Shown here: positions 1 to 17,277 of the stretch, piece after piece
Layout: every line of letters begins with the position of its first letter
How positions within the stretch are numbered: the stretch's first letter is position 1
IMG/VR virus record: IMGVR_UViG_2923302340_000005
Location: 1-35,430 of that record
Length of the DNA: 35,430 nt
Direction: 5' to 3' (one strand)
DNA from: a virus
Lineage: Duplodnaviria; Heunggongvirae; Uroviricota; Caudoviricetes
Program-made: the position numbers and the translations under genes
Notes under the pieces: model-generated
Databases searched by the model: none
Seen by the model: only the letters and a program-made list of their open reading frames with translations
Told to the model about the DNA's origin: nothing

Positions 1-1023
1 TTATGTGGATGAAATGTGGATGCCTCCTTTTAACGGATTAAGTGAAATTGCATCCTGGAGGAAATCAGGAGCGAGGTGCGCATAGGTCATAGTTTGCTGG
101 ATCGTAGCGTGCCCCATAATTCGCTGGAGCGTAAGTATATTTCCTCCATTAATCATAAAGTGAGCAGCAAAGGTATGGCGTAGAACATGTACAGCCTGTC
201 CTTTTGGTAGGTCTGGCTTAACACTGCGAAGCACCTTGCGATATTCCTCATAATTGACGTCAAACAAAAGGCCGGATTTCTTTGTTTTGATCTCACTAAC
301 AACTTCATCAGAGACAGGAATAATTCGAACTTTTCCGTTTTTAGTTTTGTTAAACGTCACGCGATTATTGATGATGTGTTCCGCGCGCAGATTTTTCGCT
401 TCTCCCCATCTCGCCCCAGTACTGAGACAAAGTAGCGTAATCCGCCGGGCATCACCGCTTACTGCATCCAGTAATTTGGCGATTTCTTCCGTGGTGAGAT
501 ACGTCATTTCGGGTGATTTTCGTTTCAAAGAGGGGAGGGCGCGGAGCGGATTTTCTCCGTGAAATTCCCCGGCATTTGCCAGGAGTGTAAACATTCCTCC
601 GAGATCCGACTCATCACGCCGAACAGTAGACTCTTTTACTCCCAAGGATAAACGGGAGCTTCGATAAGCGGCCATGAAACGAGCATTAATCTGGCTAACC
701 CTTGGATCATTCATTTCTTTGATGATTTTTTTCAACCTGGTTAGAACGCCGTTAGCATATGGCTTATTGCGTCCACCCAATTCCCACCATAACGGAAGCA
801 GATCTGAGAGATGACGTTGCTCTGTTGGCTTTTCAAGCCATTCCTTATCGTGCATGTGGCTGAGAACATAACGCTCAAAGGCCACTGCATCTGCCTTTTT
901 CTTAAAAATCCGCTGAATCCGACGTCCACTTCGGCCACGCGGTCTAACATCCACTTTATACCGTCCACCATCGAGCGCTTTAATTGCCATTGGCAAGCCC
1001 TCCGGTGAAACGAGGAAAGACAT
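1..1023 (-). CDS. int: Tyrosine integrase, P2 Int-like
   Basis: 340-aa ORF; C-terminal catalytic region with conserved R...HxxR...Y pattern (VLRHTFAAH, TMTYAHL) typical of phage tyrosine recombinases; sits next to the immunity repressor as in P2. Stop codon at 1-3, so the adjacent att site is outside the window. Confidence 0.9.
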   Translation of the reverse strand: MSFLVSPEGLPMAIKALDGGRYKVDVRPRGRSGRRIQRIFKKKADAVAFERYVLSHMHDKEWLEKPTEQRHLSDLLPLWWELGGRNKPYANGVLTRLKKIIKEMNDPRVSQINARFMAAYRSSRLSLGVKESTVRRDESDLGGMFTLLANAGEFHGENPLRALPSLKRKSPEMTYLTTEEIAKLLDAVSGDARRITLLCLSTGARWGEAKNLRAEHIINNRVTFNKTKNGKVRIIPVSDEVVSEIKTKKSGLLFDVNYEEYRKVLRSVKPDLPKGQAVHVLRHTFAAHFMINGGNILTLQRIMGHATIQQTMTYAHLAPDFLQDAISLNPLKGGIHISST

Positions 1024-5080: not shown

Positions 5081-7909
5081 ATGACGGCAGAGTACATCAG
5101 GGACTGGCAACAACCGCGCCACGCAGTGGGACGTGAAGGAACGGGGATCCCCGTTCCTGAATCTGCGCTTTCCTCCTGGCTGGATGCCTACCGGGCAGAG
5201 AACGAGCGCCGCCAGGAAATGGCTGATGCGGCGTTCTCCGCCACGCCGCTGGGCAACCTGATTAATAAAAGCCTGGATGCACAGGAAAAACAGGACAAAA
5301 CCATCACACTGGCAGGAGACGCCAGAAAACAGGCACGCGGCGCGGTGGATGAAGCCATGGCCTCGCTGCGCCTGCTGCCGTCCTATCTGCGCGATCCGCT
5401 TATTCGCCACCTCTCCTTCCTGCGCAAAAAACAGGAAGTCGATCGCCGGAAAGGCAAAAAGAGCTGGCAGGCTGAACGCTACGCGCGCGGAACCCTGCGC
5501 AAAATATTCGAACGTCTGGACCGCACCGACCACCGCTGGCTGACACCGGGTTATCGCTCCCTTGCCGGACGCGAACGCCTGGATGATTTGCTTTACCTGC
5601 CGCAGCTCAACAAGCACCAGATACAGACGCTGGCCACCATGACGGCGGCGATGTTCAGCAGCACCTTCGAAAAACTCTGCGATGGCTTTGGCGCGACTGA
5701 TGGCGAACTGACCATGGATGTAACGCTGAAGGCGTATCAGATGCTGGCCCGCATGGCGTTACACCTGCACGCCATGCCTCCACATTATGACGCACTGACA
5801 ACAGACAAAGACCGGAGGAACGAACCGGACACGGAGCTGCTGCCGGGCGCAATCCTTCGCCTGACCTGTGCGGAATGGTGGAAACGCAAACTGTGGCTGT
5901 TACGTTGCGAGTGGAGAGAAGAACAACTCCGCGCCGCCTGTCTGGTTTCCAGAAAAACATCACCCTATCTGAGCCAGGACGCGTTAAGCGAGTTTCGCGC
6001 ACAGCGCGAGAAAACCCGCGACTTCCTGAAGAGCTTCGAACTGGAAAACGAAGACGGCTTCACGATTGATCTCGAGACAGTGTATTACGCGGGAGTAAGT
6101 AACCCGGTTCACCGTAAGGCAGAAATGATGGCCACCATGAAGGGACTGGAACTTCTGGCCGAAGCCCGTGGCGACAGAGCGGTGTTTCTGACTGTCACCT
6201 GCCCGTCAAAATACCACGCAACAACGGAGAACGGTCATCCGAACCCCAAATGGAACGGGGCCACCATGCGCGACTCCAGCGATTACCTGGTTAACACGTT
6301 TTTTGCGGCGGTCCGCAAGAAACTGAACCGCGACGGCCTGCGCTGGTATGGCATCCGCACGGTGGAGCCTCACCATGACGGCACCGTGCACTGGCATATG
6401 ATGGTCTTTGCTCATCCGGAAGAAATCGACAGCATCGTGGCCATCACCCGCGATATTGCCATTCAGGAAGACCGCCACGAGCTGGGCAATGATATTACTC
6501 CGCGCTTTAAGGTGGAGTATGTCGACGGCTCAAAAGGCACGCCAACCAGCTACATCGCCACCTACATCGGAAAGAACCTGGACAGCCGCGCCGTGGATGG
6601 CATCGACCCGAAAACGGGCAAACCACGCGTTGACCACGAAACCGGAAAATCAATGGCCGAGAGCGTGGAACGCGCCATCGGCTGGGCGCGCCTTCACCGG
6701 GTCCGCCAGTTCCAGTTCTTTGGTATCCCCTCCCGTCAGGTGTGGCGTGAACTGCGTCGCCTTGCCAGCCAGATGGCACGCAACCCCGAAGGCCCGCAAC
6801 GGCTGAAGGATGACGCAATGGATGCGGTTCTTGCTGCCGCTGATGCCGGATGTTTTGCCACCTACATAGAGAAACAGGGCGGCGTACTTGTTCCACGCAA
6901 AGACTACCTGATTCGCACCGCCTACGACCTCGCAGATGAGCTGAACGATTACGGCGAACAGAGCGTACAGATTTACGGGATCTGGTCGCCACTCATCGGG
7001 GAATCCTCCCGTGTGTGCACGCATCCGGATAACTGGAAGCTGGTAAGACGCAAACCGGAAGCGGAAGACAGCGCCCGCGAAAATGGTTTTGACCTTCAGG
7101 GCGGCCCTGCCGCCCCTTGGACTCGTGGCAATAACTGTCCCCGTGTACAGGAAACGGACAACAACGGGATAGAACAGCCGGAAGAACGGCCAGCACCGTG
7201 GCCGCAGCTCCCTGACGGCGTTGAAGTGAACGAATGGATGCGCTCACTGAAACGGCACGAACGCCGGGCGCTGATGCGTTCGCTTCGGCTTCGTGACAAA
7301 CAGGCAAAAAACAGCAGTGATGAAATGCAGAGCTGGACACAGAGCCGCAAACAGCAGCGGCCTTTGCCTGATAACCACGAATTACTCGCTAAAGAATGGC
7401 GGGAATCTGCCGAATCTCTCGGCCTGCATATCGGTGAACAGCAGATGCAGCACCTGTTACGGGGCGGCAGCCTGTACGTTGACGGCAGCATCATTGCACC
7501 GCAGGGATTTGAAATTGTACGCAAACCGGATACCCGCCCGGACAGCCGAATCACGCAGCTCTGGCAGCGCCTGAGCCGTAATCACGGCGTAAGCAGCACA
7601 GAGATCCGCCATAACCCGGTCGCCAGCTATCTGGAACAACTGGGGGCATCAGACCCCGAAGCCGCCGCACGTCTGGCATCCACACTTCAGCAGGACCAGA
7701 ACACCATGAAAACCCCCGTTACCGTGCTTTCTGACATGCTGCGCGCCATCCGTGACACAGAGCACGCACAGAGAATCAGTGAAACCACTGAACGCGCCCA
7801 CCGCAAAGCAGACCTGCTGCGGGGTAGCCTGACCAGTGGAAACAAAAAACAGACAGAAACGGGACTCACAAATCTCGTAAATGAGCAAAAAACGCGCCAT
7901 AAAACATGA
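5081..7909 (+). CDS. A: Rolling-circle replication initiator, P2 gpA-like (HUH endonuclease)
   Basis: 942 aa; HUH-type metal motif HWHMMVF and paired catalytic tyrosines SYIATYIGK, characteristic of P2 A / phiX174 gpA Rep proteins; carries a long charged C-terminal extension relative to P2 A. Confidence 0.85.
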   Translation: MTAEYIRDWQQPRHAVGREGTGIPVPESALSSWLDAYRAENERRQEMADAAFSATPLGNLINKSLDAQEKQDKTITLAGDARKQARGAVDEAMASLRLLPSYLRDPLIRHLSFLRKKQEVDRRKGKKSWQAERYARGTLRKIFERLDRTDHRWLTPGYRSLAGRERLDDLLYLPQLNKHQIQTLATMTAAMFSSTFEKLCDGFGATDGELTMDVTLKAYQMLARMALHLHAMPPHYDALTTDKDRRNEPDTELLPGAILRLTCAEWWKRKLWLLRCEWREEQLRAACLVSRKTSPYLSQDALSEFRAQREKTRDFLKSFELENEDGFTIDLETVYYAGVSNPVHRKAEMMATMKGLELLAEARGDRAVFLTVTCPSKYHATTENGHPNPKWNGATMRDSSDYLVNTFFAAVRKKLNRDGLRWYGIRTVEPHHDGTVHWHMMVFAHPEEIDSIVAITRDIAIQEDRHELGNDITPRFKVEYVDGSKGTPTSYIATYIGKNLDSRAVDGIDPKTGKPRVDHETGKSMAESVERAIGWARLHRVRQFQFFGIPSRQVWRELRRLASQMARNPEGPQRLKDDAMDAVLAAADAGCFATYIEKQGGVLVPRKDYLIRTAYDLADELNDYGEQSVQIYGIWSPLIGESSRVCTHPDNWKLVRRKPEAEDSARENGFDLQGGPAAPWTRGNNCPRVQETDNNGIEQPEERPAPWPQLPDGVEVNEWMRSLKRHERRALMRSLRLRDKQAKNSSDEMQSWTQSRKQQRPLPDNHELLAKEWRESAESLGLHIGEQQMQHLLRGGSLYVDGSIIAPQGFEIVRKPDTRPDSRITQLWQRLSRNHGVSSTEIRHNPVASYLEQLGASDPEAAARLASTLQQDQNTMKTPVTVLSDMLRAIRDTEHAQRISETTERAHRKADLLRGSLTSGNKKQTETGLTNLVNEQKTRHKT

Positions 7910-7958
7910 AGTGCGCACAAAACAGGCAAAAGCGGGATTTGAAAATCCCGTAAACGAT
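7857..7958. promoter_or_regulatory. Imperfect direct repeats straddling the A stop; candidate parC-like site or operator
   Basis: gggactcacaaatctcgtaaatga (7861-7884) and gggatttgaaaatcccgtaaacga (7934-7957) match at 18 of 24 positions; the second contains the perfect palindrome gggattt..aaatccc. Confidence 0.4.
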
Positions 7959-7985
7959 TAATTAATCAACATAAGGAAAAGCGAC

Positions 7986-8945
7986 ATGAAAATTTGTATC
8001 GACGACGGCTCCACCAACATCAAGCTGGCATGGACTGAGAACGGCGAACGCCGCAACGCCATCAGCCCGAACAGTTTCAAGTCGGAATGGTCTGCGCCGT
8101 TCGGTGGCACGCAGCCCGCGAACTACATGCTTGATGGCGTGCGCTATGGTTTTGATCCGGTCAGCGATCGCTTTGTCCAGACGACCGACACGCAATACCA
8201 GTACAGCGATGTGAATGTAATCGCCATTCACCACGCGCTGGTCAAATCAGGCATCACACCACAGGAAGTGGATGTGGTTGTCACCCTGCCACTGAGCGAA
8301 TATTTCGACACAAACGCACAGCCGGACATGGCCAACATCAACCGCAAAAAAGCGAACGTTATGCGCCCGGTGGAGTACCAGAACGGCAAAGCATTCACTA
8401 TCCGTAACGTACGGGTTATGCCTGAATCCATTCCGGCTGGCTTTAAAGCACTGGCTGACATGAGTCCGTTTGAATCCCTGCTGATTGTGGATTTAGGCGG
8501 AACCACGCTGGATGTGGCAAAGGTTCAGGGACAACTGGCAGGTATCAGCCAGGTGTTTTGCGATCCACACGTAGGCGTTTCCCTGATGGCCGATGCCGTA
8601 CTGTCGGTGATGGCTACTAACGGTATGCGTACCAGCCACCACATCGCCAATACCATTATCGAACATCGCCATGATGAAGCCTGGCTGCGCCAGCACATCC
8701 ACAATGACGCGCATTACGCCAGCCTGATGGCGGTTATTCGTGAAAAGGAAGAAACACTGAAACAACGCGTGATCCGCGCACTGGCGGGTTTTTCGGGTTA
8801 CGGGCGGGTGATGGTTGTCGGTGGCGGGGCGGAGATTGTGGCACCCGCTATCCGCGAAGCCTGCGGAGTTAATGCGACTTTCATCGCGGACGGGGTGCCA
8901 CAGTTTGCTCTGGTTAATGGGCTGTACGCAATGGACAAGGAGTAA
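7986..8945 (+). CDS. parM: ParM/StbA-like actin-type segregation ATPase
   Basis: 319 aa; strong resemblance to plasmid R1 ParM as recalled from memory along the whole length (IDDGSTNIKL, ISPNSFK, YSDVNVIAIHHAL, VMPESIPAG, LIVDLGGTTLD, SGY..VMVVGGGAE, LVNGLY). AAGGA RBS. Confidence 0.85.
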   Translation: MKICIDDGSTNIKLAWTENGERRNAISPNSFKSEWSAPFGGTQPANYMLDGVRYGFDPVSDRFVQTTDTQYQYSDVNVIAIHHALVKSGITPQEVDVVVTLPLSEYFDTNAQPDMANINRKKANVMRPVEYQNGKAFTIRNVRVMPESIPAGFKALADMSPFESLLIVDLGGTTLDVAKVQGQLAGISQVFCDPHVGVSLMADAVLSVMATNGMRTSHHIANTIIEHRHDEAWLRQHIHNDAHYASLMAVIREKEETLKQRVIRALAGFSGYGRVMVVGGGAEIVAPAIREACGVNATFIADGVPQFALVNGLYAMDKE

Positions 8946-8949
8946 ACCA

Positions 8950-9261
8950 ATGACGACACCAACCAGACGGATAAGTTTCTATCTGAAGCCCGCCGCCGTC
9001 AAGAACGAAAGCGAAGCATGCGCCTGGCTGGACAGCCTTACACCAGAAGCCCGCAAAAGCGGCCAACGCGTGGCTTTTCTGGCCGGGCTGGCACTTCTGA
9101 AAATGAATCCGGCAGAGGCTTACCGACTGGCTGCATGGGCTGATGGCGAGGCGTTATCAGTGACACAAACCAGGACAGAACGCCCCGTGCCACAGCCAGC
9201 ACCAACCGCACAGATAACCAGTCAGATGGCCGGAAATATCCGGGCGTTATTTCCCGAATAA
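8950..9261 (+). CDS. parR: ParR-like adaptor protein (putative)
   Basis: 103 aa directly downstream of the parM-like gene; AAGGAG 7 nt upstream; resembles R1 ParR (RRISFYLKP..., VAFLAGLAL, C-terminal LFPE). Track ORF starts further upstream inside parM. Confidence 0.65.
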   Translation: MTTPTRRISFYLKPAAVKNESEACAWLDSLTPEARKSGQRVAFLAGLALLKMNPAEAYRLAAWADGEALSVTQTRTERPVPQPAPTAQITSQMAGNIRALFPE

Positions 9262-9268
9262 CACAACG

Positions 9269-9288
9269 TCAGGGCGAGTTCGCCCTGA
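9269..9288. repeat. Perfect palindrome TCAGGGCGA-GT-TCGCCCTGA, left bracket of the Ea22-like pair
   Basis: Read directly; shares its stem sequence with the palindrome at 10474-10499 on the other side of the pair. Confidence 0.6.
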
Positions 9289-9324
9289 TCTCCACCTCAG
9301 AACATAAACAAGGAGACCGACTTA

Positions 9325-9924
9325 ATGAGCGAAATCAACTATCAGGCACTGCGTGAGTTAGCAAAACAGGCAACACAGGGCGAATGGGTCGCATTTATTT
9401 CGCCGGGCAAATACGGCACGTACGCCGTGCACACACCAGGAGATAATCATCACGGAGATATTGTCGACTGGCCTGGATTCGACGAACAGAAAAACGCAGA
9501 GAACAACGCTCGTTATATCGCAGCTTTCAACCCTGAAGTAGTGCAGGCTCTGTTGGATGAACGAGAAGCCCAAAGCAAACGCATTGCAGAGCTGGAGGCT
9601 AATTTCACGGAGCTGGCAGCGGAGAATGCCGCAATGAAGCTGTTTATCAGGGGCAGTTGCTATGTATTTGATGGAGAGCAGGATGAAATATCTGACGCGT
9701 ATATCTGCGCAACAGACGGAGGAATGCCACAAACCCCAGCCACCGACGCTTTTCTGGCTGAAGTACGGGCGCAGGGCGTGGAGATGCTGGCAAAAAATCA
9801 TCAGAGTATCGTCAATGCACTTAAGGGAGATTCTTTATTTTCTGATGATGAATACCGACATGCAGCTATTGTTTCCGCAGCTGTATATTTCGCCGCAGAG
9901 CTTCGCAAAGGAGGCAGCCAGTGA
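9325..9924 (+). CDS. Ea22/Ead-like family protein, paralog 1
   Basis: 199 aa; N-terminus MSEINYQALRELAKQA and ALLDEREAQSKRIAELE coiled-coil motif; AGGAG RBS. Confidence 0.55.
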   Translation: MSEINYQALRELAKQATQGEWVAFISPGKYGTYAVHTPGDNHHGDIVDWPGFDEQKNAENNARYIAAFNPEVVQALLDEREAQSKRIAELEANFTELAAENAAMKLFIRGSCYVFDGEQDEISDAYICATDGGMPQTPATDAFLAEVRAQGVEMLAKNHQSIVNALKGDSLFSDDEYRHAAIVSAAVYFAAELRKGGSQ

Positions 9925-10460
9925 GCAAAATTGACTATCAGGCACTACAAATGGCAGCAGAACGTGCAATTCCGGCAATGGAACGCCTGTTAATATTGCC
10001 AGTTGATGATGATTTGTTAAGCGAACAGGAACTTAAAGATTACGGTGTGGATATTGACGCGATCAACACCTTCAGAATTCTGGCTGGACCGGAAGACATG
10101 CTGGCACTGCTGGATGAACTGGAAACAGCAAAAAAACGCATCGCTGAACTGGAAAAAATCGCCACTGACTATGCACTTAAATTCCAGAAAGCACAGGACG
10201 CATTAAAGTATGCCGCTTTGCTGCATAGCAGGACGGCGCAACAAACAAATAATTTTGCAGTATCGCTTCCGGACATAAGCGAATATTTCATTAATGACGT
10301 ATTTCAGCCCTTGCGATACGAGCGGGATGTTGAAAGAGCCATCATAAAGGCTGGCGGAAAAGCATTGTGGCAGGAGAAGCACGAGGAAAGAACGCATCAG
10401 CTAAGTGATGTAAATAGTGGATGGTTATGCCCACTGACAGAAGGTAAAAAGAACACCTGA
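9921..10460 (+). CDS. Ea22/Ead-like family protein, paralog 2
   Basis: 179 aa; GTG start overlapping the upstream stop (GTGA), AAGGAGG RBS; N-terminus MSKIDYQALQ and ALLDELETAKKRIAELE; divergent C-terminus. Confidence 0.55.
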   Translation: MSKIDYQALQMAAERAIPAMERLLILPVDDDLLSEQELKDYGVDIDAINTFRILAGPEDMLALLDELETAKKRIAELEKIATDYALKFQKAQDALKYAALLHSRTAQQTNNFAVSLPDISEYFINDVFQPLRYERDVERAIIKAGGKALWQEKHEERTHQLSDVNSGWLCPLTEGKKNT

Positions 10461-11026
10461 TTTCCTCTCAAACCAGGGCGATAATCGCGCATCGCCCTGC
10501 TGCACAATAGTGCACAAATTTGCACAATTTTTTTGAACGACTTTTTGCCCTTCCAGCCCGCGTGGCGGCTGGATCCGTCAAGGATCCGTGCGTGCACAAA
10601 AAAACGCGTTTTTTCTGCGCGCAGGTGACGGGGGAACAGCCCGCGCTTCAGGGGGTAAATAGCATTCCCTGAACGATGTCGCAGAGACACAACAGAATGG
10701 CCATATTTCTCACGCTGAGCATGAAAAAGGCGTGAGGGCTTTTGATTTGATGGGGTGAAAGGTAAGGCCGTCAAAATCGCACTGAGGCAGCGAGGACATA
10801 CAGTCAACGTGGTGGGATTGCGTAAGAGTCTGACCGTCGATGGTGGCGATAAACTGGAAGGCGTCGTGAAATTATCTGATTGATACAGGAGCTGGAGAGC
10901 CGGGGCATAAATTTTTTATGCCCCGGCGAAGCAGCAGACAAGCGAAGCGCGTCAGTGATGCGGCACCTTGCCGACCACACTTCATAAGTGCAAAATACGA
11001 GCAAAGAAATCAATGGAGGCTGTTTT
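10461..11026. other. Structured noncoding region; candidate cos packaging site
   Basis: No credible ORF on either strand. Contains palindrome CAGGGCGAT / ATCGCCCTG (10474-10499), TGCACAA three times at exact 10-bp spacing (10501-10527) plus a fourth at 10593, palindromes AAAAAACGCGTTTTTT (10599-10614) and CTGCGCGCAG (10615-10624), a GACGGGGGAA segment (10627-10636) reminiscent of the P2/186 cohesive-end sequence, and a 12-bp perfect stem CCGGGGCATAAA / TTTATGCCCCGG (10900-10926). Confidence 0.4.
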
Positions 11027-11551
11027 ATGGTCATTAATTACAAGCAGTTACGAGAAAAACGAGATCAGGTAAAGGAGAGTTTTCGCCGCAATGAAGACCT
11101 GACCCCACTTGTACGAATTGCCCAGGGAATTGTTGATGCTTATGAAATCTCTCTGGAGCTGCCATCACAGACATGGACGGATAGCGACGGTAATCGCCAG
11201 CATTACGTTTCATGCGGACTGGAAACAACTGAAGGGTTTCGCAGAATGCCTTTATCTCAGATCCCTGCCGCTACCCCCAAAGCAAGGGGCGGCAATGATG
11301 AGCGAAAACTGATTTTCAGCATTGAGACAGTGGTTGACGACACACCTGGCGAAGTCGCCTTCGTGCATACTCCTGTTTCGATCGCAATGTATAACGATGA
11401 AATACAGGTTCGCGTTAATAATAATATCGTGCCACTTAAAGAAGGTAATTCACCATACACCACCGTTTGTGAAGCCATTCAATATTACGTTCTCTCTGAA
11501 ATTGATAATCTCAAGCCTGACGGCACCCAGAAAATGGTTCAACTCTGGTAA
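11027..11551 (+). CDS. Hypothetical accessory protein
   Basis: 174 aa from ATG 11027 with GGAGG 7 nt upstream; no recognisable family; convergent with portal Q. Track ORF starts at GTG 10988. Confidence 0.55.
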   Translation: MVINYKQLREKRDQVKESFRRNEDLTPLVRIAQGIVDAYEISLELPSQTWTDSDGNRQHYVSCGLETTEGFRRMPLSQIPAATPKARGGNDERKLIFSIETVVDDTPGEVAFVHTPVSIAMYNDEIQVRVNNNIVPLKEGNSPYTTVCEAIQYYVLSEIDNLKPDGTQKMVQLW

Positions 11552-11556
11552 AAAGG

Positions 11557-11583
11557 ACAGCCCCAATCACGGGGCTGTTTTTT
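11557..11583. terminator. Hairpin plus T-run between the convergent accessory gene and Q
   Basis: ACAGCCCC-AATCAC-GGGGCTGT followed by TTTTTT on the plus strand; the Q stop codon lies in the loop. Confidence 0.55.
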
Positions 11584-12613
11584 CATCAAGAAGAGCATAA
11601 GAATTAAAACGGATCACCTCTTCGCCAAGCCAGTCATTGATGTGCTTCATGGCCTCCATAACGGGCATCAGCTCGTTAATTGCATAAACCCGCGCGGCCT
11701 TCTCCACATCACCAAACGCACTTTTTTCGCCCGGCATCGCCCCCATCAGTTGCGGTGGAACACGGTGCGCAGCCAGCACATCATCACGGGATGCCGCCTT
11801 AACATTCATGAACTCATCTTTTGCGGTGATCTGCTGGAACGGCAAAATTTGCACCCCCTCTTTCCCCCCGTTGGGCGCATGGATGAGCACGTTTTTAAAC
11901 GCACCACCACCACGCGCACCCTGTAACGTTTCTTTCAGGGAGTCCATGCTTTCGCGGTTTACCTGCGCTGCACCGATATAGATGATGCACCCGGCGTGGG
12001 ATCCATTGTCGTAATACAGTTTTCTGAACATGTCCGCCGAATGAGACAGGCTGGCCGAGAGTAATGCGCCAAGATATTCCGGCATGCCGTAAATTTCCTG
12101 GTTAATGTCCGGATTCATCAGGTGGCACACTTTGCCAGGGCGAAACTGAAACGCATCCTTGCCATCCTGCACATACCACCATGATTCAAGATCGCTTCCG
12201 CGTCGCATGTATTTCGCCAGGGCGTGCCGTAATTTAAGCGGTTCGCCGAGCATATTGCTTCGAAGCTCAAGAAATGCGTTACCGAACACAAACCAGTCCA
12301 GCGCCAGCGCCGAGAAATCCTGCCGGGAAAGCAGCGGGTGCGGAATATAGCAACCGAGCAATACATTGCGCTTAAAGTAAAGCGCAGACTGATGCCAGGA
12401 CGTTTGCCGGGCAGCTCTTGCCAGACCGTACCAGTCCACCGGGGTTTCATACCACCGCCCGTTATCAGCACAGTACATATTGTCCAGCAAATCATGCCCG
12501 GTCAGGCGATAAGGACCATCAAATGTGAATGCACTGAGCGACGATTCTTTCCTGAGCGCATCAGCGAGATCAATGCGTGAACTCATGCGCACTTTTTTAT
12601 TTTTTCTGCTCAT
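11567..12613 (-). CDS. Q: Portal protein, P2 gpQ-like
   Basis: 348 aa; size, position and leftward orientation with P as in P2; start overlaps the P stop by 1 nt. Confidence 0.85.
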   Translation of the reverse strand: MSRKNKKVRMSSRIDLADALRKESSLSAFTFDGPYRLTGHDLLDNMYCADNGRWYETPVDWYGLARAARQTSWHQSALYFKRNVLLGCYIPHPLLSRQDFSALALDWFVFGNAFLELRSNMLGEPLKLRHALAKYMRRGSDLESWWYVQDGKDAFQFRPGKVCHLMNPDINQEIYGMPEYLGALLSASLSHSADMFRKLYYDNGSHAGCIIYIGAAQVNRESMDSLKETLQGARGGGAFKNVLIHAPNGGKEGVQILPFQQITAKDEFMNVKAASRDDVLAAHRVPPQLMGAMPGEKSAFGDVEKAARVYAINELMPVMEAMKHINDWLGEEVIRFNSYALLDEKTAP

Positions 12614-14364
12614 CAGAACTCCATAACCGTAAAACGCTCGTTTTCCCCTTCGCCGCCAATTGGTTCGTTAATGACAGCAAGCATGGTTGCCCACGCAAGG
12701 TCGCCGTGGCTGATCCCCCTCGCACGGTCCGTTTCGTAAGTGATAAAGCCGCCCGGTGTTTTCACCTTACGCACGGCGTTAAAGGCCGCGACCAGCTCGC
12801 GTTCGGCGCGATCGTATTCCCACCGCCCGGCACGCATTATTTGCAGCATTTTCAGTACCAGCGACCGTTTTGATGACAGCGTGAAGGTGTACGGAATAGC
12901 AGCAGGGAAAAACCGTTTCACTATCTGATAAACAGCCTCCCCGTTCCCGCCCGTCACATCAATGCCGATGTGTTCCACGTTGTAGCGACACGTGAACTCT
13001 TCAATGACTCTGGCCTGTTCTTCAAACTCCAGCCCCTGAACGCGTCGCGTCTCCACCGTTCGAAAACGGCCACCAGGAACAGCCGGAGGAACCACCACGG
13101 ACACAGCGCCGCTGTCGCCGTTGCCACTGCTGCCGTTTGCGTCATACCCAATCCATACCGGACGATTCCCCATCGGGCGGGGAGCAAAAGGTTTCCAGTC
13201 TTTCCAGTCGTCGTATCCGTCAACACCGCAGCCAATCAGGATATTCAGGTTAAATGCCGATTCCCCTTCGCGGACAAACTCACACATATAGAGATTGCGG
13301 AACTCGTCTTCGGTGTTTTCATCACGAATTTCGTCAATATCGGTGTGTTTCCAGCCGTGATTAACCACATCTTCCAGCGTGACAATTTGCCGCCACGTCC
13401 GGTCAGGGCAGATAAGCCCGTTATGCAGCGTTTTCCAGTCCACAGAAAAACGCTGGCGTTTATGCGTGGCCTTTTTCTCGTTCCAGCGGTCGCCGTTCCA
13501 GTAGGCGTATGCCTCGTGCGTTTCGGTGGATGGCGTGGAGAAGTAGGTGCGCCGCAGTCCGCTGAGGGTTGCCATAGCGCCAGCCACCTTGCGCAGTTCA
13601 GCAAAGCGACTGACCCAGAAAAATTCATCAAAATAAAAATTGCCCGTATAGGACTGTGCCGACGCAGCAGAAGTGCCGAGAAAATGCAGCTCTGCGCCGT
13701 TGGAGAGGATGATTTTATCGCCCCCTTTCAGCTCCACATCAACTTCAGCCGCGGCCTTCTGAATAATGCTTTTGAACTGGAACGCCTGACGACGCGACGC
13801 AGACAAAAAAATCTGGTTACGCTGGTAAGGTTGCGCCACATCGTCACGCAGCGCCATCATCAGAGCTTCCTGTGCAAAATACCAGGTCGCCCCAATCTGT
13901 CGGGATTTCAGGATCATCCTGTTACGTATCCCGGCTTCCTTGCAAAGTGTCAGGGAGTCAAACCAGCCCCGCTGATGCCACTCCAGCCTGCTGATGATTT
14001 TTTCCCGCAGTGCGACAATCTGTTCCGGCGTGAAATGATTTTTGAGTTTTTTCGCCCGGCCTTTCTTTCCTGCGGCCATCACATCCGGCTGGCCATCATG
14101 CAGCTTTTTAAGCTGCCGGGTCAGTAGGTCTATTTCCTTAAAGTCACCGCCTGTTTTATTCTGTTTTTCAGTAAGCTGGATGAGGCGCGCATCGATGGAC
14201 TGCGTGACACGCTGCACGGGTGGCGTTTCATCCCACTGGTCGCGTTTTTTCCACGCATAAACCGTGTTCGGGTTTATTCCCATCAGACGTGATATTTCTG
14301 CGGGCGGATAACCCTGCCAGTAAAGTTGCCGCGCACGCTGGCGCACAAAAGCGTCCTGAATCAT
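12613..14364 (-). CDS. P: Terminase large (ATPase) subunit, P2 gpP-like
   Basis: 583 aa, same size as P2 gpP; forms the leftward P-Q operon. Confidence 0.85.
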   Translation of the reverse strand: MIQDAFVRQRARQLYWQGYPPAEISRLMGINPNTVYAWKKRDQWDETPPVQRVTQSIDARLIQLTEKQNKTGGDFKEIDLLTRQLKKLHDGQPDVMAAGKKGRAKKLKNHFTPEQIVALREKIISRLEWHQRGWFDSLTLCKEAGIRNRMILKSRQIGATWYFAQEALMMALRDDVAQPYQRNQIFLSASRRQAFQFKSIIQKAAAEVDVELKGGDKIILSNGAELHFLGTSAASAQSYTGNFYFDEFFWVSRFAELRKVAGAMATLSGLRRTYFSTPSTETHEAYAYWNGDRWNEKKATHKRQRFSVDWKTLHNGLICPDRTWRQIVTLEDVVNHGWKHTDIDEIRDENTEDEFRNLYMCEFVREGESAFNLNILIGCGVDGYDDWKDWKPFAPRPMGNRPVWIGYDANGSSGNGDSGAVSVVVPPAVPGGRFRTVETRRVQGLEFEEQARVIEEFTCRYNVEHIGIDVTGGNGEAVYQIVKRFFPAAIPYTFTLSSKRSLVLKMLQIMRAGRWEYDRAERELVAAFNAVRKVKTPGGFITYETDRARGISHGDLAWATMLAVINEPIGGEGENERFTVMEF

Positions 14365-16476: not shown

Positions 16477-17277
16477 ATGATTACTCCTGCACAGCAACAC
16501 TGGCAGAACGTGATGGCACAGCGCGCAGGCCGGGCGAATGAAGGCGTGGACCATGCCGCGCGTACCGCGCATGAAGAGGTGCTGTATCGTCTGCGTCTGG
16601 CACAGGCCCGGCTTAAGGGCGTACAGGCCAGAAGCGCGAAAGCCGCCATCAAAAAAGAGTTGTTGCCGGATTTTTCCGGCTGGATTGAGGGAACGCTGGA
16701 GGCTGACGGCGGGCAGCAGGATGAAGTGATTGCCACGCTGATGGTGTGGGCGATTGACTGTGGCGATCTTCCGCTTGCGCTGCGTATCGGCGCGTATGTG
16801 GTCCATCACAACCTCATCATGCCGGATAACTTTGGCCGTACTGCTGCCACGGTACTGACCGAAGAAATCTGTAATCCGGTACTGACGCAGGCCGGGACGG
16901 ATGCCGACGCGGATTTGTCCGCCTTTATCGAACCACTGGACACCCTCCGGGAGATTGTCACCGACCAGGACATGCCGGACGAAGTGCGCGCCAAATTATG
17001 CAAAGCGTGCGCCTTTGCCCGCCGTGGCCTGACCGATGCGGACAGCATGGCCTCATCACTGAAGCTGCTGCGCGAAGCGATGCACCTGAACCCGAACGCA
17101 GGTGTGAAACGCGAGATTGCAACCCTTTCCCGCGCCCTGAAAAAAGCCGATTCCGCAGCCGCACCAGAAGATGCCAGCACACCGCAGGCGCAGGACGAAA
17201 GCAGCAAAAGTAAAAAGACAACGCGGAAGCCTGCAACACGAAAAACCACCGCGACGCAGAAGGCGAAGCGCGGTTAA
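16477..17277 (+). CDS. M: Terminase small (endonuclease) subunit, P2 gpM-like
   Basis: 266 aa; matches P2 gpM (KKELLP, MPDEVRAKL, AGVKREI) with basic C-terminal tail. Confidence 0.85.
   Translation: MITPAQQHWQNVMAQRAGRANEGVDHAARTAHEEVLYRLRLAQARLKGVQARSAKAAIKKELLPDFSGWIEGTLEADGGQQDEVIATLMVWAIDCGDLPLALRIGAYVVHHNLIMPDNFGRTAATVLTEEICNPVLTQAGTDADADLSAFIEPLDTLREIVTDQDMPDEVRAKLCKACAFARRGLTDADSMASSLKLLREAMHLNPNAGVKREIATLSRALKKADSAAAPEDASTPQAQDESSKSKKTTRKPATRKTTATQKAKRG

Follow-up and report, generated by a model that had tools for sequence, protein, structure and literature searches.

The segment at 10500-10666 of the window, the 35,430-nt stretch of viral DNA analysed here, is very probably the cos (cohesive-end, packaging) site of the prophage that the window represents, a P88-like member of the P2 family (Xuanwuvirus). 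An original prediction, made from the letters of the sequence, had read the whole of 10461-11026 as a probable cos site. That reading is borne out for 10500-10666 by four independent comparisons, namely the geometry of the site relative to mapped cos sites, its conservation in distant relatives, a mosaic boundary at its first repeat and its sharing with satellite elements. It does not extend to 10667-11026, which is spacer DNA between cos and the portal gene and is conserved among close relatives only. A cos site at this place is an expected, ordinary feature, and known ideas on cos function are unchanged by it.

The assignment to the P2 family follows from the open reading frame map and from Pfam scans of the window, and the closest deposited phages, P88-type Xuanwuvirus, are 92-96% identical to it across the region of the finding. 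The cos block sits where the original prediction had placed it, with the replication and cargo genes of the right end on one side and the leftward Q-P operon on the other; the order of right-end cargo, cos and portal-terminase operon is that of P2, 186 and P4. Unlike in these, an extra plus-strand gene, absent from the original prediction, lies between cos and Q. Past Q and P the order is gpO, gpN, gpM, gpL. The same genome encodes a cognate terminase, with homologues of both gpP (Pfam Terminase_5, Terminase_6N and Terminase_6C; 44% identical to P2 gpP) and gpM (36% identical to P2 gpM). The cargo at 7986-10460 includes a plasmid-type partition pair, ParM and Plasmid_stab_B, inside an integrating P2-like prophage.

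Table 1. Features of the cos region and its surroundings in the window (strand as +, - or, for features given without one, a point).
Feature	Position	Strand	Remark
Integrase gene	1-1023	-	
Replication protein gpA	5081-7909		
ParM	7986-8945		cargo
Plasmid_stab_B (ParR-like) protein	8815-9261		cargo
Two Ead/Ea22-like proteins	9325-10460		cargo
9-bp hairpin CAGGGCGAT N8 ATCGCCCTG	10474-10499	+	3' end of variable cargo module
Whole cos region (very probable)	10500-10666	+	block common to distant relatives and satellite elements
Distal repeats R1-R3, TGCACAA x3, 10-bp spacing	10501-10527	+	putative terminase recognition array
T-tract after R3	10528-10535	+	conserved (0.80); putative bendable segment
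GC-rich dyad TCCAGCC N8 GGCTGGA	10552-10573	.	sequence varies among relatives
GGATCCGT x2, direct repeat 11 bp apart	10571-10589	+	lineage-specific
R4, proximal TGCACAA and A-tract	10593-10604	+	31 nt left of core
A6CGCGT6 perfect palindrome	10599-10614	.	lineage-specific
Left core flank TGCGCGCA	10616-10623	.	GCGCGC part conserved, column identity 0.82
Predicted cosN (cohesive-end core) GGTGACGGGGGAACAGCCC	10624-10642	+	nicks placed by analogy, to within about 2 nt
Right core flank, GCGC then G-run 10651-10655	10643-10666	+	end of satellite-shared block
Terminator-like hairpin CTCACGC N14 GCGTGAG and T-rich tail	10709-10749	+	
42-codon ORF, GTG start	10755-10883	+	annotated hypothetical in some phage records
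Perfect 13-bp hairpin	10899-10927	.	
Present-or-absent module between cos and Q	10964-11591	+	10964-11026 is its upstream region
ORF in module, 174 aa	11027-11551	+	
Terminator in module	11557-11578	-	
Portal Q	11567-12613	-	
gpP, terminase large subunit	12613-14364	-	N-terminal helix-turn-helix (Terminase_5), ATPase and nuclease domains
gpM, terminase small subunit	16477-17277	+	Pfam Phage_term_smal

The block opens with three TGCACAA units on the plus strand at a spacing of exactly 10 bp (R1, 10501-10507; R2, 10511-10517; R3, 10521-10527). The original prediction had described these three, starting at 10501, 10511 and 10521; a fourth unit that it did not list, R4, starts at 10593 (TGCACAA itself at 10593-10599). 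The word occurs five times in the whole window, against 9.3 expected, and four of the five copies fall within 99 bp on one strand. The core GGTGACGGGGGAACAGCCC occurs once in the window, and the GCGC of its left flank recurs on its right at 10643-10646.

Other elements of the block are less constant. The GC-rich dyad between R3 and R4 has a 7-bp stem in the window (p = 0.008), is individually significant in 5 of 35 relatives, and has a counterpart at the same position in many, not all, relatives and also in 186 and P4. The palindromes that the original prediction stressed are present, A6CGCGT6 at 10599-10614 and CTGCGCGCAG at 10615-10624, but two of those it stressed are lineage-specific and probably incidental. 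Neither the satellite nor the distant relatives have A6CGCGT6, probably an incidental palindrome, or the GGATCCGT pair. The hairpin at 10474-10499 lies outside cos, as homology with relatives begins only at 10500/10501. The segment GCGTGGCGG at 10560-10568 resembles the 186 end; we rejected it as a cohesive end, because it falls within the variable dyad and lacks conservation.

Phages P2 and 186 and the satellite P4 have 19-nt 5' cohesive ends within a 55-bp conserved core, according to Ziermann and Calendar (1990) as cited in PMC3931495 and PMC5694545. For comparison with the window, each of the three genomes was joined across its annotated ends, right end to left end. On the right-end side all three have three distant TGCAT units and one near, TGCATTAAAAC at -29, and GC-rich sequence lies on both sides of the cohesive end. 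Measured from the annotated cohesive end, the TGCAT repeats start at -123, -111, -101 and -29 in P2 and at -124, -111, -101 and -29 in 186 and P4; measured from 10624, the TGCACAA repeats of the window start at -123, -113, -103 and -31. The window thus has the same arrangement, a trio of distal repeats and a single proximal one with A residues after it, at near-identical distances from a G-rich core that lies on the same strand between GC-rich flanks. The repeat-to-core distance is constant to 1-2 nt although the terminase subunits are only 36-44% identical to those of P2. Alignment with the cos regions of P2, 186 and relatives, which the original prediction had proposed as a check, therefore returned the same repeat-to-core geometry.

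A local alignment places 10624-10642 opposite the 19-nt cohesive ends of P2 and 186. This is the segment that had been predicted to resemble those ends, and it is conserved in distant loci. Its ungapped match to the P2 end is 13 of 19, a score of at least 13 that is reached at 11 sites in the window and is not significant alone; the match is convincing only because of the comparative evidence. No canonical P2/186 end occurs elsewhere in the window within 3 mismatches. The best ungapped matches to these ends elsewhere in the window lie inside genes and are at chance level, and were discarded.

The site differs from its mapped counterparts in several respects. The repeat word is TGCACAA here and TGCAT in P2, 186 and P4, and the core is GGTGACGGGGGAACAGCCC here and GGCGAGGCGGGGAAAGCAC in P2 (13 of 19 positions identical). 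The distal units are spaced by 10 + 10 bp here, as opposed to 12-13 + 10 bp. From the core to the first hairpin on the Q side the distance is about 260 nt in the window and about 140 nt in P2. The cohesive ends of P2, 186 and P4 are mapped, whereas those of the window are predicted from sequence. P4 and P2 have almost nothing in common except cos (PMC9122126). That P4 copies the layout while being nearly unrelated to P2 outside cos indicates that the whole layout serves packaging. The window conforms to this pattern too, in that its cos is common to helper phages and satellites.

Conservation over larger distances was assessed in loci found by a portal protein search with one genome per bacterial species, which gave 52 loci. 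The 32 examined have portals 54-78% identical to that of the window and come from other Enterobacterales, with genera including Citrobacter, Edwardsiella, Serratia, Klebsiella, Enterobacter, Pantoea, Erwinia and Morganella. Most of them show the TGCACAA array followed by GGTGACGGGGGAACAGCCC or GGCGAGGCGGGGGAGCAAG, some 200-330 nt from the Q stop. The GGTGACGGGGGAACAGCCC core is found in 17 of 33 sequences (the 32 loci and the window), about 270 nt from the Q stop, and the GGCGAGGCGGGGGAGCAAG core in 15 of the 32 distant loci. In the second type the first 12 nt are identical to the P2 end, while the TGCACAA repeats and the layout are like those of the window, with the repeats 2 nt nearer the core. 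In an alignment of 35 sequences the mean column identity is 0.91, 0.92, 0.98 and 0.91 for R1 to R4, 0.84 for the core and 0.82 for the GCGCGC flank, compared with 0.57-0.64 for the spacers and 0.43 left of R1. The two core types track different clusters of the large terminase subunit (L088-L136). This agreement between core type and gpP clade may reflect recognition by gpP, and would fit linkage alone equally well.

Among close relatives the block has a sharp left edge. In nearly all of 80 viral contigs with portals nearly identical to that of the window, homology to the window starts at 10500/10501, where R1 begins. This is exactly where the variable cargo ends, and 54 different 10-mers precede R1. 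Three units with 10-bp spacing at -123 +/- 1 are present in 102 of 108 distinct upstream sequences; in the other six the first unit is degenerate (five) or the array is missing (one). The latter is the metagenome contig L024 (4850-5050), which lacks R1-R3 and is homologous to the window from 10559 only, where it adjoins unrelated DNA; either this copy is defective or the distal array is not needed. Across 71 distinct close relatives, no invariant run is longer than 10620-10642. In 1149 of 5426 complete E. coli genomes the cos block is present, intergenic and unannotated.

Some individual records deserve mention. A Salmonella enterica genome, strain s1 (CP191473.1; L087), has a portal 100% identical to that of the window and the same left cos flank. 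A contig labelled Vagococcus sp. WN89Y (L112) carries a portal gene 99% identical to that of the window, and is probably a contamination of that assembly. None of the phage records and viral contigs examined starts or ends at the core. The LR595891 record (phage P88_4B11; L002:1-110) starts 79 nt left of the core, at no recognisable feature. It has a 5-nt deletion and substitutions at the equivalent of 10635-10646, exactly at the predicted right nick. Either such variation is tolerated, or the assembly is in error at a physical end. In contig L060 (4377-4424), homology to the window stops at 10622, 2 nt left of the core, and the contig breaks inside an insertion sequence. Judging by its terminal inverted repeat, we take the element that abuts this point to be the end of an IS1, and the break was rejected as a phage end.

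Satellite-like elements delimit the site on both sides. Two of them, L141 (1-9700) and L143 (250-10700), come from two E. coli strains and occupy different sites on the chromosome. L141, the weakest full-length match to the block in E. coli, aligns with the whole window only at 10500-10666 (79% identity), apart from one weak coding match. R1-R3, R4 and CGCGCGCAGGTGACGGGGGAACAGC are almost identical between satellite and window, while the intervening stretches differ. Because the satellite shares essentially nothing but 10500-10666, this comparison delimits the functional site independently of phage ancestry. The satellite genes encode an Icd-like protein, a toprim primase, an integrase, an Ogr/Delta-like protein, a P2-family major capsid protein and MazEF; no terminase or portal gene is in view in L141 or L143. 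In having its own P2-type capsid gene the satellite is unlike classic P4. About 56 of the 5426 complete E. coli genomes have the satellite-type copy; most copies of the phage type escaped detection by megablast. We infer that L141 and L143 are mobilised by P88-type phage.

These comparisons also bear on other readings of the region. The original prediction had allowed for a structured non-coding or defence-associated RNA, of which the repeats and palindromes would be structural elements. Inverted repeats are indeed numerous, and the plus strand of 10660-10965 folds better than its shuffles (z = -3.5), but this low folding energy stems mostly from two simple hairpins. No Rfam family was found up to E = 1 over 7800-12000, the cos block of 35 relatives yields no consensus fold (-3.6 kcal/mol, covariation term -0.4), and the conserved columns are those of the repeats and of the G-rich core rather than paired ones. 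We regard an RNA at this site as highly improbable.

That the phased array is a parC-like centromere of the ParM/ParR-type genes at 7986-9261 is extremely unlikely. Plasmid centromeres typically have phased direct repeats, and the ParM and Plasmid_stab_B genes lie 1.2 kb to the left; yet the array and the ParM-bearing cargo lie on opposite sides of the homology boundary, and the array is kept beside unrelated left flanks (the 54 different 10-mers) and in L141, L142 and L143, whose annotation shows no partition genes. An equivalent TGCAT array, moreover, lies at the same distances from the mapped ends of P2, 186 and P4. The repeats might instead be an operator for a late activator or repressor beside cos, with only the core and its flanks serving packaging. 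This would suit the satellites, in which a gene for an Ogr/Delta-like activator follows immediately to the right of the shared block. We nevertheless consider an operator very unlikely: no sigma-70-like promoter was found near the repeats, the satellite-shared block begins exactly at R1, and the repeat-to-core distance is fixed within 1-2 nt across phages with diverged terminases, which fits one machine reading both.

For a cos site of this layout, the binding protein, the nick positions and the bending of the DNA can be proposed by analogy with P2, 186, P4 and lambda. Terminase (gpM and gpP) would recognise the four TGCACAA units, as suggested by P2, 186 and P4. Three units (10501-10527) would be presented on one helix face, and the fourth would precede the cut site by 31 nt. 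Roughly 120 bp separate the cut site from the distal array, and the conserved T- and A-tracts would probably help this stretch to bend. The gpP nuclease would then introduce staggered nicks around 10624-10642, between the GCGC-type flanks, giving 5' cohesive ends of about 19 nt. It is plausible that gpM reads the repeats; gpP could do so instead because of its N-terminal helix-turn-helix domain. The predicted nick sites carry an uncertainty of about 2 nt: an alignment of the two core types needs indels of 1-2 nt, and if the P2 spacing were applied strictly, the left nick would fall at 10622.

The lambda cos site is organised as cosQ-cosN-cosB and includes an IHF site as well as R sites, which serve the small terminase subunit. 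The site in the window resembles it in having an array of short repeats beside the nicking site and, as predicted, staggered cuts that leave 5' cohesive ends. It differs in that there is no sequence relation and that the array lies on the right-end side of the cut; P2, moreover, is reported to package from monomeric circles. The lambda-type IHF element has no counterpart, as the IHF consensus WATCAANNNNTTR has no match anywhere in the window.

The spacer to the right of cos contains two hairpins and one short reading frame. The terminator-like hairpin at 10709-10749 may end transcription that runs rightward out of the cargo genes and through cos. The original description of the region as free of open reading frames holds in substance: the 42-codon ORF at 10755-10883 is present, but it has no PHROG match and no coding signature, with variable sites distributed 21/21/18 by codon position. 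It is intact in 64 of 71 relatives and, judged from these substitutions, is probably not a gene. The perfect hairpin at 10899-10927 is probably the ancestral end of the P-Q operon, because relatives without the gene at 11027-11551 have it immediately after the Q stop.

That gene belongs to a module that is present or absent as a unit. In relatives without it, homology to the window stops at 10963 and resumes at about 11590, and the module replaces the last few codons of Q. The 174-aa protein belongs to PHROG 5091 (function unknown) and has homologues only in E. coli and Salmonella. It gave no Pfam or PADLOC match, and its predicted model, of medium confidence (mean pLDDT 72.5), matched no solved fold. 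The position between cos and Q is known as a hotspot for foreign genes (PMC5694545).

No description of a P88-group cos, with its diverged repeat word and core, was found in the searchable full-text literature. The present assignment locates the genome ends and the packaging signal for a prophage type found in about one fifth of complete E. coli genomes, and the cos block gives the precise boundary of the cargo hotspots that flank it. The conserved repeat-to-cut geometry can serve as a simple guide to cos in P2-family prophages with diverged cohesive ends. That a variant repeat word and core are common to a phage and a satellite family suggests specificity classes of helper and satellite. It is possible, if rather doubtful at present, that the TGCACAA/GGTGACG-type sites and the TGCAT/GGCGAGG-type sites of P2 form two packaging-specificity classes, that the satellite family with its own P2-family capsid gene is dedicated to P88-type helpers, and that gpP, through its N-terminal helix-turn-helix, reads the repeat word in place of gpM. 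If there are two such classes, the cos sequence would decide which satellites a helper mobilises.
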